Assembly (NCBI GenBank): GCA_041690175.1
Contig: JAWLHV010000004.1
Location: forward strand, 130,528 to 194,527
DNA: 64,000 nt
Origin: Dehalococcoidia bacterium
GTDB taxonomy: Bacteria; Chloroflexota; Dehalococcoidia; UBA2979
Direction of reading: 5' to 3'
The notes beneath the pieces were generated by a model. It searched no databases. It was not told the origin of the DNA and saw only the letters and a list, made by a program, of their open reading frames with translations. Every line of letters starts with the position of its first letter. Positions within the stretch are counted from its first letter, which is position 1. The position numbers were made by a program, and so were the translations under genes. Positions 37,829 through 41,929 of the stretch are shown here, one piece after another.

Positions 37829-38464
37829 GTGACGAACGAGCCGCAGTTCCCCGCGCAGTTCTTCCGGCGCGAGGACATGTCGTCCGACCGCTTCTTCTAC
37901 GAGGTCTCTCGACTGGTCACGCACATTGACGACGCGACCATCCAGGCGCTCACGGACCTGTACCGGGAGAGCGTGCCGCCCGGCTCTCGCGTCCTGGACC
38001 TGATGTCCTCCTGGATGTCCCACCTGCCGCCGGAGCGGGAGTACGCCCGTGTCTCCGGGCTGGGGATGAACCAGGAAGAGTTGCAGCACAACCCGCAACT
38101 GACGGACCTGGTGGTCCATGACCTGAACGCCAACCCCACGCTTCCGTACAAGGGCGGCGCCTTCGATGTGGCGCTCTGCGCCGTCTCCGTGCAGTACCTC
38201 ACCCAGCCGGTGGAGGTCTTCCGGGAGGTGGGGCGCGTGCTGGTGCCCGGCGGGACGTTCCTGGTGACCTTCTCGCACCGGATGTTCCCCACCAAGGCCG
38301 TGGAGGTCTGGCGCCAACTGGGGCCGGAGGACCGCGTGCGGCTGGTGGCGTCCTACTTCGGCATGGCCGGTAACTTTGGCGAGCCGCTGTTCATCGACCG
38401 CTCTCCACCCGACGCGGACCCGCTCTGGTGCGTAGTTGCGCAGCGTTCCCAGGACGCGCCGTAG
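37829..38464 (+). CDS. class-I SAM-dependent methyltransferase-like protein
   Basis: GTG at 37829 after GGGGGAA, 211 aa. Rossmann-like RVLDLMSSW (motif I degenerate). Post-I and post-II acidic/hydrophobic blocks (AFDVALCAVSVQYL, PGGTFLV). Confidence 0.5.
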   Translation: MTNEPQFPAQFFRREDMSSDRFFYEVSRLVTHIDDATIQALTDLYRESVPPGSRVLDLMSSWMSHLPPEREYARVSGLGMNQEELQHNPQLTDLVVHDLNANPTLPYKGGAFDVALCAVSVQYLTQPVEVFREVGRVLVPGGTFLVTFSHRMFPTKAVEVWRQLGPEDRVRLVASYFGMAGNFGEPLFIDRSPPDADPLWCVVAQRSQDAP

Positions 38465-38503
38465 GCGCCGGACGCGCGCCCCAAGGGGCCCGTGGAAAAT
38501 TTT

Positions 38504-38523
38504 GATCGCGTGGACGCGCGATC
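38504..38523. promoter_or_regulatory. 7-bp inverted repeat with 6-nt spacer in the AT-rich region upstream of the KPAA miniprotein
   Basis: GATCGCG-tggacg-CGCGATC. It lies within the only markedly AT-rich stretch (aaaattttgatcgcg...ctaatacgc) of this intergenic region. Confidence 0.3.
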
Positions 38524-38597
38524 GCCCCCCGCACAAGATTCCGTTGCTGTCTAATACGCATCAGCGAGTGCATCCAGGGCCCGGACGCTCGTCACCC

Positions 38598-38741
38598 ATG
38601 GGTTCCGGTACCGCGCGTAACCCGCGACGGGCCGGAGTAGTCAAAGGAACATCCTTGGCTGCAACGAAGAAGCCTGCGGCAAAGCCTGCGGCGAAGCCGG
38701 CTGCCAAGCCGGCCGCTAAGCCGGCTCCCAAGAAGAAGTAA
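38598..38741 (+). CDS. lysine/alanine-rich KPAA-repeat miniprotein (histone-H1-like / AlgP-like tail)
   Basis: 47 aa from ATG 38598. An alternative in-frame TTG at 38655 with AAAGGAAC SD gives 28 aa. C-terminus is KKPAAKPAAKPAAKPAAKPAPKKK. The four KPAA repeats use different synonymous codons (cct/ccg; gcg/gca/gct/gcc). A strong terminator follows. Confidence 0.5.
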   Translation: MGSGTARNPRRAGVVKGTSLAATKKPAAKPAAKPAAKPAAKPAPKKK

Positions 38742-38777
38742 CACTTCCTCTCGGCAGAAGCCGATCAGAATGAAGGA

Positions 38778-38808
38778 CCCCCGGGACGCCGGGGGTTCTT
38801 CATTTTCT
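38778..38808. terminator. bidirectional Rho-independent terminator
   Basis: Perfect stem CCCCCGG / CCGGGGG with loop GACG. Followed by TTCTTCATTTTCT on the plus strand and TCCTTCATTCT on the minus strand. Lies between convergent stops at 38741 (+) and 38830 (-). Confidence 0.8.
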
Positions 38809-38829
38809 GGGACGCACGAGACGCAGGCG

Positions 38830-39165
38830 CTAGCGTCGCCGGCGGCGCTCACGGCGGCGGCGGACGTGGTCAGGACGGGTGGTCGTGGCCTGCACCTGCT
38901 CGGGGCCCCGCTCGTCCTGGTCGCGCGCCCCTCGCGCAGGACGCCGCTTCCCGAGGCCCTGCGTCACCACCATCATGACGCGACTGATGAGTCGCAGCAT
39001 GAAGAACGTGAAGAAGAAGAACATGGCGGCGGTGACGGCCAGCACCATGGGGTCGCGTTCGTCCTGCAGGTACTGGATGCCGGTGAACACCAGCGTGGCG
39101 AAGGCGGTGTAGATCGCGTTGGCGCGGGCGCTTTGCACGGATCCTCCGTCAGTGATGCCCGCCAC
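38830..39165 (-). CDS. small two-TM membrane protein with poly-arginine C-terminal tail
   Basis: GTG start, 111 aa. Two hydrophobic helices (AIYTAFATLVFTGI; VLAVTAAMFFFFTFFMLRLI). C-terminus is RRRRERRRRR, encoded with varied Arg codons. GC3-rich. Converges on the shared terminator. Confidence 0.4.
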   Translation of the reverse strand: MAGITDGGSVQSARANAIYTAFATLVFTGIQYLQDERDPMVLAVTAAMFFFFTFFMLRLISRVMMVVTQGLGKRRPARGARDQDERGPEQVQATTTRPDHVRRRRERRRRR

Positions 39166-39302: not shown

Positions 39303-40610
39303 ATGATGGTGCTGATCGTCATCATCGTGCTGATCGCGCTGAACGCCCTCTACGTCGCGGGGGAGTTCGCGGCAGTCTCCACCCGCCGTACCCGCGTCCG
39401 GCAGTTGGCGGAGGGCGGCAACCGCCAGGCGCGGTGGCTCCTCGGCGTCATTGAGAGCGGCGTGGGGCTGGACCGGTACGTGGCCGGCTGCCAGGTGGGC
39501 ATCACGCTCTCCAGCCTGCTCCTGGGCGCATACGGCCAGGCGGCGCTCACTCCAACCCTTGCAGATGCGCTCCAGGACATTGGCGACATGGGCCGGGCGA
39601 CGGCTGTCGGAAGCGCCGCCACCGCGGTGCTAATCACGCTGACGGCCACGCAGGTGGTGGTGGGTGAGTTGCTGCCCAAGTCCGTCGCCCTGCAGTTCCC
39701 GACGACCGTGGCCGTGTACACGTCGCTGCCCATGCGGCTGTCGCTCTGGGTGTTCCGGCCGCTGATCGCTGTCCTGAACGGCAGCGGTATCGCCATCCTG
39801 CGCTTGCTCCGGGCGCCGGCCGCGGGTCACCGTCACATCCACTCGCCAGGAGAGATCTCGCTGCTCATCGCAGAGAGCCGCGACGGAGGCCTCCTCTCCG
39901 CGGACGAACAGGAGCAGTTCGAACGCGCCCTGCGCCTGAGCGTGCTCCCCGTCCGCCGGATCATGGTGCCGCGGCTGGACATCGTCTCCGTCGACGCGGC
40001 CGCCACGCTCATCGAGGTGCAGGCGCAACTCGTCCGGTCCGGGTACACCCGCCTCCCGGTCTACCAGGGCTCGCCGGACGAACTCGTGGGCGTGATCCAC
40101 GCGAAGGACGTGGCGCGCGAGGTCATGGCGGGGCGCGGGCATGCGCGGACGGCCGACCTGATGCGGCGGATCGCCAGTGTCCCCGAGTCCATGCGCTGCG
40201 AGCGGCTGGTGGGCGAACTCCGGCGCCAGCGGTCGGAGCAGGCGGTGGTGGTGGACGAGCACGGCGGGGTGACCGGCCTGGTGACCCTGGAGGACCTCCT
40301 CGTGGAGGTCCTGGGGGATCCCGAGGCCATTCGGGGGGCGGAGGCGCACCCGGTGCGGCTGTCGGACGGCCGCCTGCGTCTGCCGGGCCGCATGCGGGTG
40401 GACGAGGCGGACGAGTGGTTGGGCGTGCTCTGGGAGGGCGAGAGCGACACCCTGAGCGGGATCATCTCCGAGCGGCTGGGCCACGTACCGCAGGCCGGCG
40501 AGTCGCTGGAGATCTCCGGCGTGGGCGTGGAGGTCGAGCAGGTGGACGGGGTGGTGGTGGCGTCGCTGCTGGTGCGGCCGGCTCGGGTGTCCGAGGAGGT
40601 GGAGCGGTGA
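39303..40610 (+). CDS. HlyC/CorC-family transporter (CNNM/DUF21 + CBS pair + CorC_HlyC)
   Basis: 435 aa. N-terminal DUF21 with 4 TM, a CBS pair, and a C-terminal transporter-associated domain. Confidence 0.85.
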   Translation: MMVLIVIIVLIALNALYVAGEFAAVSTRRTRVRQLAEGGNRQARWLLGVIESGVGLDRYVAGCQVGITLSSLLLGAYGQAALTPTLADALQDIGDMGRATAVGSAATAVLITLTATQVVVGELLPKSVALQFPTTVAVYTSLPMRLSLWVFRPLIAVLNGSGIAILRLLRAPAAGHRHIHSPGEISLLIAESRDGGLLSADEQEQFERALRLSVLPVRRIMVPRLDIVSVDAAATLIEVQAQLVRSGYTRLPVYQGSPDELVGVIHAKDVAREVMAGRGHARTADLMRRIASVPESMRCERLVGELRRQRSEQAVVVDEHGGVTGLVTLEDLLVEVLGDPEAIRGAEAHPVRLSDGRLRLPGRMRVDEADEWLGVLWEGESDTLSGIISERLGHVPQAGESLEISGVGVEVEQVDGVVVASLLVRPARVSEEVER

Positions 40611-41929
40611 GCGCCCTGGTGCCGGCAGCGATCGTTGCGCTCCTGATCGGGCTCAACGGCCTCTTCGTCGCCGCGGAGTTCGCCATCGTGGGCGCGCCAC
40701 GCGCCACGCTAGAGCGCCGGGCAGCGGAGGGGCATCGCGGGGCACGCCTGGTGACGGGCGTCCTCCGGGATCCGCGCTCGCAGGACCGGTACATCGCCAC
40801 TGCGCAACTCGGCATCACGTTCGCCACGCTGGGCCTCGGCATGTACGGCGAGCACCAGATGGCGCACTGGATCGCGGACCGCATTGACGCGTGGGAGGGC
40901 GTTCCCACCTGGCTCGCTGCCCACACGCTGTCCACCGTCCTGGCCATCACGGCCATGACCTACCTCCACGTGGTGCTGGGAGAGATGGTCCCGAAGTCCC
41001 TGGCCCTACAGCACGCGGAGGGCACGGCGCTGCGCGTCACCCCGCCCATGCTCTGGATACGCCGCCTCATGTACCCGCTGGTGCTGGGGCTGAACGCCGT
41101 GGGGAACGGGCTGCTTCGTCTGTTCGGGATCGACCGGTCGCAGGGGAGCCAGGAGCAGTTCTACTCGCCGGAGGAACTGGAACTCGTGGTGGAGGAGAGC
41201 CTGGAGGGCGGGCTCATCGAGCGCGGCTCCGGCCGCATCCTGCGCGAACTGTTCGACCTGGGCAGCCTGAGCGCGGAGGACGTCATGACGCCGCGCGTCC
41301 AGGTGGACGGGCTGCGCCTCGGCGCCGCCCCCGGCGAGGTGGCGGCCGTGGTAGCGGAGCACCTGCACACGCGCTACCCGGTCTACGGGGACGACCTGGA
41401 CGACATCCGCGGCGTGGTGCACGTGCGGGACCTGGCCACCTGTGTCAGCCGAGGCGTGCCCGTGACGGAGAATGTCATCCGCGCGGCGCCGTTCGTACCC
41501 GGGTCTACGCCGCTGTCCCACGTGGTCACGCGCATGCGCGACCAGTGGGTGCAGTTCGCGGTGGTCCTGGACGAGCACGGCGGCACCGCCGGCATCATCA
41601 CGCCGGACGACGTGAGCAACGAGATCCTGGGCCGCGTACCCGAGTCGGAGGCTCCCGCTGAGATGTTCCGGGATGCCGCGGGGACGCTGCATGTGGCGGG
41701 CACGGTGCGACTGGACGAACTGGGGGAGTACCTGGGGGTCTCGCTGGAGCACCCGGACGTGGACACCATCAGCGGCCTGGTGCTCGCGCTGCTGGAGCGC
41801 CCACCGCAGGTTGGCGACACCGTGGAGTTCGAGGAGATCCGGCTGCGCGTCACGCTCGTGGACGGCAGAGGCGTGGCGGAGGCGGTGGTCACCCGCTTGC
41901 CCGCCCCCGAGGGGAGCGAGGAGGTCTGA
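40607..41929 (+). CDS. HlyC/CorC-family transporter (second tandem paralog)
   Basis: GTG at 40607 overlapping the upstream stop (GTGA), 440 aa. Same DUF21 / CBS / CorC_HlyC architecture. Confidence 0.85.
   Translation: MSALVPAAIVALLIGLNGLFVAAEFAIVGAPRATLERRAAEGHRGARLVTGVLRDPRSQDRYIATAQLGITFATLGLGMYGEHQMAHWIADRIDAWEGVPTWLAAHTLSTVLAITAMTYLHVVLGEMVPKSLALQHAEGTALRVTPPMLWIRRLMYPLVLGLNAVGNGLLRLFGIDRSQGSQEQFYSPEELELVVEESLEGGLIERGSGRILRELFDLGSLSAEDVMTPRVQVDGLRLGAAPGEVAAVVAEHLHTRYPVYGDDLDDIRGVVHVRDLATCVSRGVPVTENVIRAAPFVPGSTPLSHVVTRMRDQWVQFAVVLDEHGGTAGIITPDDVSNEILGRVPESEAPAEMFRDAAGTLHVAGTVRLDELGEYLGVSLEHPDVDTISGLVLALLERPPQVGDTVEFEEIRLRVTLVDGRGVAEAVVTRLPAPEGSEEV

Follow-up and report, generated by a model that had tools for sequence, protein, structure and literature searches.

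The Lys/Ala/Pro tails of histone H1 and of HupB condense DNA, and the H1 of trypanosomatids has no globular domain and consists of such a tail only (Kasinsky et al. 2001, as cited in PMC10919886). To our knowledge, lysine-rich repeats of the KPAA or H1-like type have so far been studied only as tails of larger proteins, namely AlgP, PhaF, HupB, and histone H1. KPAA-repeat peptides (in vitro) and AlgP's C-terminal domain bind DNA; AlgP is also associated with polyphosphate granules and needs its tail to organize them (PMC9239181). The KPAA domain of PhaF binds specific 5' untranslated regions (UTRs) via its lysines and activates translation (PMC12818456), and the tails of mycobacterial HupB/MDP1 and Ku are described as lysine-rich low-complexity repeats that increase DNA binding (PMC5676037, PMC3553676). 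The gene described here, from a 64-kb stretch of Dehalococcoidia DNA with 71% G+C (the window, meaning all of the DNA analyzed), appears to encode a repeat of this kind with no other domain attached. It occupies positions 38655 to 38741 of the plus strand, with a TTG start and 28 codons followed by TAA (38739 to 38741), and the stretch examined (38465 to 38810), which is flanked by a methyltransferase gene and a convergent gene, also contains a structured leader and a hairpin terminator.

The predicted product, MAATKKPAAKPAAKPAAKPAAKPAPKKK (28 amino acids [aa], 2.77 kDa, pI 10.9), is composed of 9 Lys, 11 Ala, 6 Pro, 1 Thr, and 1 Met and has no acidic, aromatic, or Arg residue. Its start codon lies six bases downstream of a Shine-Dalgarno sequence, AAAGGA (38643 to 38648). 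A 28-codon open reading frame (ORF) by itself proves nothing in G+C-rich DNA, and we therefore gathered orthologous regions by scanning one genome per species with the methyltransferase, by scanning metagenomes with a DNA pattern taken from the conserved leader, and by collecting contigs that bear methyltransferase homologues. The contigs are independent genome and metagenome assemblies of Dehalococcoidia relatives, all of one clade, so that the sequences are not independent of one another. They yielded 12 further versions of the ORF (loci L002, L003, L004, L057, L058, L059, L060/61, L063, L065, L066/67, L068, and L069), each just downstream of the same methyltransferase, and conservation of the frame in 12 other genomes is, on this comparison, far above chance. 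Every version opens with TTG GCT GCN ACG AAG AAG (M-A-A-T-K-K), the TTG itself being invariant (13/13), and every complete one closes with AAG AAG AAG and a stop codon (TAA in 10/12, TAG in 2/12) whose position never changes. Between these fixed ends the TTG-to-KKK-stop span measures 81, 84, 87, 93, or 105 nucleotides (nt), always differing by whole codons, and the product has three to six KPAA-like units. Two closely related contigs, L063 (2068 to 2172) and L069 (1128 to 1220), differ by one KPAA unit and its surroundings (34 versus 30 aa), and repeat number therefore shifts on short evolutionary time scales, as has been reported for the AlgP tail.

Substitution patterns agree with translation of this frame. 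The window differs from L002 by 6 synonymous changes and 1 nonsynonymous change and from L004 by 12 and 2, and variable columns fall at first, second, and third codon positions in the ratio 10/5/19. Computed over 12 sequences in all six frames, the ratio of nonsynonymous to synonymous change (pN/pS) was lowest in the proposed frame, at 0.22, next lowest in the antisense frame that shares its third positions, at 0.35 to 0.37, and 1.14 to 5.8 in the other four. The window contains four perfect KPAA units and one KPAP, written AAG CCT GCG GCA, AAG CCT GCG GCG, AAG CCG GCT GCC, AAG CCG GCC GCT, and AAG CCG GCT CCC, a 12-nt DNA period that is only 71 to 86% identical beneath an exact peptide repeat. 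The first-pass annotation of this DNA had taken these synonymously varied codons as a sign of selection on the protein and had named conservation of the reading frame in related genomes as a check; the frame is indeed conserved there.

It is thus very improbable that the locus makes no peptide and is a noncoding RNA, or a 12-nt DNA repeat in which composition happens to leave a frame open. Long open frames come easily at 71% G+C, the repeat can be read through in two further frames, and nothing at the locus is more conserved than its 5' and 3' RNA structures. Against this, changes gather at third codon positions, indels are whole codons, pN/pS is at least 1.14 in four other frames, and a Shine-Dalgarno sequence stands at the right distance from an invariant start. 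Nor is there much to commend a gene on the opposite strand, the antisense ORF from 38561 to 38731 that would encode a (GLAA/GFAA)n protein and that we regard as extremely improbable. It is open in all orthologues, shares its wobble positions with the sense frame, and has the second-lowest pN/pS, but it shows L/F, G/V, A/E, and G/D replacements at sites whose changes are silent in the sense frame, lacks a conserved start, stop, or Shine-Dalgarno sequence, and switches frame in its C-terminal half between orthologues, and its start would fall just after the terminator of the minus-strand gene. Its low ratio is the shadow to be expected from selection on the sense frame. From comparative evidence, then, the ORF is a protein-coding gene under purifying selection, its coding status established short of direct detection.

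Two starts had been proposed initially, ATG 38598 for a product of 47 aa and TTG 38655 for one of 28 aa, and in the window both can be read through to the same TAA, but only the shorter reading is conserved. In orthologues the frame upstream of TTG is closed by TAG or thrown out of register by 1- to 2-nt indels in the spacer that separates the start from the Shine-Dalgarno sequence. Because that upstream frame is not preserved and ATG 38598 leads into differing frames or is lost, the alignment identifies TTG 38655, the sole start common to all versions, as the true one. A real product of 47 aa, or of 101 aa from an ORF beginning at 38436, would draw on the facts that the window frame is open from 38436 and that ATG 38598 lies inside an invariant motif; with the ATG lost in L059 and L068 and no Shine-Dalgarno sequence before it, we give such a product almost no credence. 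A conserved upstream ORF beginning at the same AUG was also considered and rejected, since neither its frame nor its length is constant, no Shine-Dalgarno sequence stands before it, and those two loci lack the AUG.

The 13 versions, with whole products of 26 to 34 aa, bear out the initial proposal of a free-standing KPAA peptide and allow it to be set beside the systems introduced above. Like AlgP (AlgR3) of Pseudomonas aeruginosa, the microprotein has tandem KPAA units, a composition limited to Lys/Ala/Pro, predicted disorder, and a variable repeat number, but AlgP is a 352-aa protein in which a helical N-terminal domain of 124 aa accompanies some 25 or more repeats, whereas the microprotein has no other domain; family and protein searches, which say little for a low-complexity sequence, detected no homology between the two beyond the repeat, and the microprotein comes from Chloroflexota. 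The C-terminal domain of Pseudomonas PhaF is likewise a disordered KPAA-repeat region, with 9 to 22 repeats, but it follows a phasin N-terminal domain that has no counterpart here. Of the two features of an AlgP/PhaF-type protein, we therefore found the tandem KPAA units and not the folded N-terminal domain, for which a 28-aa product with a closed upstream frame in orthologues leaves no place. The H1 C-terminal tail resembles the microprotein in being Lys/Ala/Pro-rich and disordered, and the trypanosomatid H1 resembles it in being free-standing too, but even that tail-only H1 is about 2 to 3 times longer. No Linker_histone winged-helix domain was matched in Pfam at E values up to 1, and the peptide is too short to hold one; the Hc1 and HC2 Pfam families of chlamydial Hc1/Hc2 gave no match at the same limit, and a Pfam scan found no HU/IHF fold in the 28-aa product. 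The HupB/MDP1 and Ku tails (PAKK/KAAK/PAKKA) differ in being appendages of folded HU or Ku domains and in having a repeat unit unlike KPAA. What is novel is thus a free-standing form of a known repeat type, together with a candidate cis-regulatory RNA of a new kind.

Such a gene is easily missed. The ORF was not called in any contig that has a gene table, each of which shows a gap of 280 to 580 nt after the methyltransferase, and an exact look-up of six peptide versions among approximately 15 billion predicted proteins found none, so the locus is as unlisted as it had first seemed. A common gene caller has a minimum gene length of 90 nt, and most versions, at 84 to 90 nt including the stop codon, go unlisted because they lie at or below it; in protein searches, KPAA peptides are moreover subject to low-complexity masking. 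With the 47-aa and 28-aa peptides as queries, Pfam and NCBIfam at E values up to 1 yielded no family and only a subthreshold Pfam "PT repeat," a protein search with the 47-aa form gave no match at E values up to 0.01, and a PDB sequence search returned no meaningful match. A phmmer search with a 30-aa form against 1.84 billion representatives returned three long unrelated repeat proteins and no small relatives, a negative that the low-complexity correction makes uninformative. We found no report of a free-standing KPAA microprotein in the literature searched, the coverage of which was incomplete.

The most conserved DNA of the locus, more so than the ORF, is a leader of about 92 to 95 nt (38563 to 38654), which the first-pass annotation had missed. 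A covariance model built from six sequences recovered every other version at 72 to 100 bits except L068, which scored 17.6 bits, and a search of the window and all 69 loci revealed no further copy of the leader. In the alignment of 12 leaders, 96.8% of cells are paired compared to 24 to 45% when partners are slid by 1 to 3 columns, figures that lean towards structure, given related sequences and an alignment that was itself fitted to the model. Six leader pairs have changed on both sides, and the covariation score is 0.150, compared to 0.062 in shuffles.

Three hairpins make up the predicted structure. Helix P1 (38563 to 38592, plus strand) pairs 38564 to 38568 with 38588 to 38592, and all five of its pairs have changed on both sides among the 12 sequences, while its loop hexamer, GGGCCC (38577 to 38582), is identical in 13/13 versions. 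It is followed on the plus strand by the junction ACCCAUGGGUUCCGG (38594 to 38608), which is identical in 11/12 aligned leaders and contains ATG 38598, and by hairpin P2 (38605 to 38635, plus strand; CCGG..CCG..CGCG / CGCG.CGG.CCGG), in which one pair covaries from C-G to G-C in three sequences. The tip of P2 is variable: L063 and L069 have a longer, different hairpin in its place, and L068 has a short one, CGGGC/GCCCG. L068 has kept the same leader architecture with entirely different P1 and P2 stems, its P1 stem having been swapped for a 7-bp GUGGAUC/GAUCCAC helix around the unchanged GGGCCC loop. P1 and P2 as drawn are thus supported by covariation across the alignment.

The third hairpin, P3 (38637 to 38662, plus strand), takes in the translation start. 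Here GUAGUCAAAGGA pairs with UCCUUGGCUGC to enclose both AAAGGA and the TTG start, and an 11-bp stem is predicted in every orthologue (100% paired in 12 sequences; folding energy, -8.2 kcal/mol; z = -2.65). The only stem change is A-U to G-U, in two sequences, and the loop varies from 3 to 5 nt. Pairing in P3 best explains why GUAGUC, which is neither coding nor part of the Shine-Dalgarno sequence, is invariant, and it likewise best accounts for the fact that TTG and the codon 2 wobble T never change (13/13).

Two palindromic and essentially invariant motifs stand out in the leader, GGGCCC in the P1 loop (13/13) and CCCAUGGG within the junction (11/12). They could serve in a tertiary contact, in dimerization, or in protein binding. 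Pairing of the GGGCCC loop with CCCAUGGG in a pseudoknot was rejected, as no covariation is available for it and L059 is altered on one side only. As a whole, the leader resembles known leaders that sequester a Shine-Dalgarno sequence (RNA thermometers, riboswitch expression platforms, and autoregulatory leaders of ribosomal proteins) in that the Shine-Dalgarno sequence and start are paired in a modest hairpin and in that this hairpin lies downstream of conserved helices whose loop and junction nucleotides do not vary. It is unlike them in having no Rfam match and no covariation in P3; with Rfam 15, nothing in the whole window matched at gathering thresholds, and the region from 38400 to 38850 gave only subthreshold matches driven by the terminator.

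Downstream, the gene ends in a hairpin terminator (38766 to 38810, either strand) with 16-nt arms (38769 to 38784 and 38789 to 38804), a GACG loop, and then ATTTTCT. An 81-nt region around it folds at -43.7 kcal/mol (z = -6.1), so that the strong hairpin and U-tract noted at first inspection are borne out, and the element is kept in all complete orthologues with compensatory stems (GAAGGAC/GUUCUUC, GAAAGGC/GCCUUUC, and GGCCGCCGG/CCGGCGGCC). It lies 28 nt after the stop codon and is common to the microprotein gene and the convergent gene (38830 to 39165, minus strand), and it must belong to the microprotein gene too because the hairpin stays with the ORF where the downstream neighbor differs. 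The same arrangement speaks against a leader peptide or attenuator that governs a downstream gene, to which a short ORF, structured RNA, and a lysine run before the stop might otherwise point: within 30 nt of the ORF comes a strong terminator, the gene after it in the window is convergent, no regulated gene lies codirectionally downstream in the same transcription unit, and the ORF and terminator travel together while downstream neighbors differ between lineages. We consider that explanation hardly credible. Between the stop codon and the terminator, a small hairpin is predicted in the 3' UTR (UCGGC-AGAA-GCCGA, 38751 to 38764, plus strand); CTCGGC-N3-5-GCCGA is kept in L002, L004, L059, L063, and L069 (group A) and is absent in group B.

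The codon usage of the gene is also out of the ordinary. Compared to six neighbor genes, the mini-gene (38655 to 38741) has a third-position G+C content (GC3) of 0.71 rather than 0.88 to 0.94, uses GCT for 37% versus 4% and CCT for 28% versus 4%, and carries T-ending codons at conserved positions. This fits translational selection in a well-expressed gene and also selection against DNA-repeat identity or mRNA structure. The layout had at first been read as typical of a highly expressed gene, for which the atypical T-ending codons and the strong terminator still speak indirectly, but the paired Shine-Dalgarno sequence and start suggest that translation is gated. With the Shine-Dalgarno sequence paired and a non-AUG start beside this codon usage, we infer that the locus is strongly transcribed and translationally gated rather than simply highly expressed.

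How these parts would work together can be outlined. A transcript of approximately 245 nt would run from near 38563 to the terminator near 38806, and if transcription starts after a -10-like hexamer described below, P1 would be its 5'-terminal hairpin, presenting the GGGCCC loop, followed by P2 with its variable tip and by P3, which would hide the Shine-Dalgarno sequence and TTG. The amount of peptide would then be set at translation initiation through the opening of P3, with the leader answering to a signal, and feedback by the peptide itself is one possibility. The peptide, almost certainly disordered on its own, would be a nonspecific polyanion binder that coats and neutralizes DNA, RNA, or polyphosphate, with the KPAA tails of AlgP and PhaF and the H1 C-terminal tail as its nearest analogues. 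By analogy with the larger KPAA proteins, a small polyanion-binding counterion is the most economical reading and most likely the right one, and it leaves DNA, RNA, and polyphosphate undivided as targets. As an account of the whole locus, we find it reasonably probable that a conserved gene encodes a polyanion-binding KPAA peptide whose translation is set by the leader.

A bolder version, which we offer only tentatively, is that of a bacterial protamine, in which a free-standing KPAA polycation of 26 to 34 aa would compact or protect nucleic acids and be switched by a new cis-regulatory RNA of approximately 95 nt. The P1 GGGCCC loop, the CACCCAUGGG junction, and P3 would together sense free peptide or a physical or chemical signal. 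A serious rival, if an unlikely one, sees in the peptide an RNA-directed factor and not a nucleoid protein; it would bind mRNA leaders or rRNA, as do the PhaF KPAA domain and very small basic ribosomal proteins, and feed back on its own leader. The unusual conservation of the leader, with its invariant loop and junction, is what would be seen in the leaders of autoregulated RNA-binding proteins, and the peptide is of the same size class as bTHX, bS22, and bL37, which are highly basic ribosomal proteins of 24 to 33 aa, Arg-rich, often missed by annotation, and lineage restricted. Those proteins, however, are nonrepetitive as well as Arg-rich, whereas the peptide is repetitive and has no arginine; no NCBIfam ribosomal-protein family was matched at E values up to 1, loss in three close relatives would be unusual for a ribosome component, and only four to six repeats would have to achieve specific RNA recognition. 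Less likely again is a counterion on granules of polyphosphate or another polyanion, in the manner of the AlgP tail. The peptide is a pure polycation, and AlgP sits on polyphosphate granules and requires its KPAA domain to space them (PMC9239181), but the structured N-terminal domain of AlgP and PhaF is missing from the peptide, and no polyphosphate genes adjoin the locus.

Several observations count against the preferred account of a leader-controlled, polyanion-binding peptide. No sequence or profile search ties the peptide to any family, including AlgP, HupB, and H1, and its proposed function follows from composition. P3 never varies on both sides, so that its pairing is backed by invariance and energy and the helix is strictly not proven; its invariance could in part reflect Shine-Dalgarno and N-terminal coding constraints. 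With 12 nonindependent sequences from one clade, the shuffle statistics for the leader overstate its support. A consensus scan found no canonical sigma-70 promoter in the window or in two orthologous loci, no -35 element has been assigned, and transcription may be read-through from the methyltransferase. Finally, the gene is missing at the locus in three close relatives, L001 (by deletion), L005, and L062, where it is either dispensable or replaced elsewhere.

These losses are informative in themselves. The gene is present in relatives whose methyltransferases are 74 to 82% identical to that of the window, and yet L001, with the closest methyltransferase (84%), has had its Shine-Dalgarno sequence and ORF cleanly deleted between ...CCGGAG and AGCCG.... 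In the remaining sequence (L001, 4596 to 4745) the terminator hairpin is intact, the leader has decayed (21 bits), CACCCACTGG is duplicated, and ATG has become ACTG, so that L001 has the appearance of a natural knockout. In more distant genomes, a same-locus comparison found the gene absent at the corresponding position. Together, the losses and the absence in distant genomes indicate a young or frequently lost gene that is dispensable at least at this locus.

A conserved gene that consists of the tail only offers a natural minimal system for studying DNA, RNA, and polyphosphate binding, charge neutralization, and condensates. It also exposes a blind spot, in which genes of 84 to 90 nt fall below the usual minimum length and their products are masked as low complexity. 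If the protamine interpretation were true, stand-alone H1-tail peptides could be widespread and systematically overlooked, because most such genes would lie below the 90-nt minimum of gene callers. The structured leader is in turn a candidate new cis-regulatory RNA in Chloroflexota, a phylum for which we know of very few described RNA elements.

Upstream of the leader, a candidate promoter (38529 to 38555, plus strand) may be formed by a box, CCGCACAAG (38529 to 38537), and a -10-like hexamer, TCTAAT (38550 to 38555). The box, CC(G/A)CACA(A/G), is common to most orthologues, and the hexamer, which in every lineage lies 4 to 7 nt upstream of the base of P1, takes the form T(C/G)TAAT in group A (TCTAAT in the window, TGTAAT in L059) and TTACAT both in group B and in L068. 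Farther upstream lies an AT-rich block, GAAAATTTTGATC (38495 to 38507, plus strand), which may be a promoter-proximal or UP-like element and which takes the forms GAAAATTTTG in group A and AAGAAAAAG in group B. The gene had been described as sitting behind the only strongly AT-rich patch of the region, and the block is indeed conserved and belongs to a set of only three clusters, over all 64 kb, of 12-mers that contain 10 or more A/T, but at the 100-nt scale the dip is unremarkable (0.61 to 0.63 G+C, with comparable dips nearby). The inverted repeat GATCGCG-N6-CGCGATC, which was singled out in the same patch, is present at 38504 to 38523 (either strand) and is probably incidental. The 64 kb contain 92 perfect 7-bp inverted repeats with 3- to 8-nt loops, about one per 700 bp, and neither the sequence nor the hairpin is conserved across orthologues. 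It is probably no more than chance and was not counted as part of the unit; a role as an operator or terminator was rejected, as the repeat is not conserved and has no T-run after it on the plus strand.

The methyltransferase that ends at 38464 is a class I S-adenosylmethionine (SAM)-dependent enzyme with a match to Pfam Methyltransf_11, and it is nearest to that of uncultured Dehalococcoidia (Chloroflexota) genomes. Other neighbors encode a major facilitator superfamily (MFS) transporter, a cupredoxin-like protein, and CNNM/CorC proteins, the last being two tandem CNNM-CBS-CorC_HlyC paralogues (39303 to 40610 and about 40610 to 41929, plus strand) of a putative Mg2+/Co2+ efflux family. The product of the convergent gene is a 111-aa membrane protein whose transmembrane segment is rich in Phe (MFFFFTFFML) and whose C terminus is rich in Arg (RRRRERRRRR), and it has no match in Pfam or NCBIfam; it is kept in L001 (110 aa) and, judging from antisense translation, in L002 too. 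Outside the window, a second uncalled mini-ORF of 22 aa, all hydrophobic (MRIALPGLFTILLIVVILLILF and variants), with no NCBIfam match and with GAGGAG upstream, occurs in L003 (5020 to 5088), L060 (2541 to 2609), L005 (4778 to 4846), and L062 (2330 to 2398). It stands after the terminator of the KPAA gene in group B relatives and alone where the KPAA gene is absent, and it could encode either a small membrane protein or a peptide like the type I toxins.

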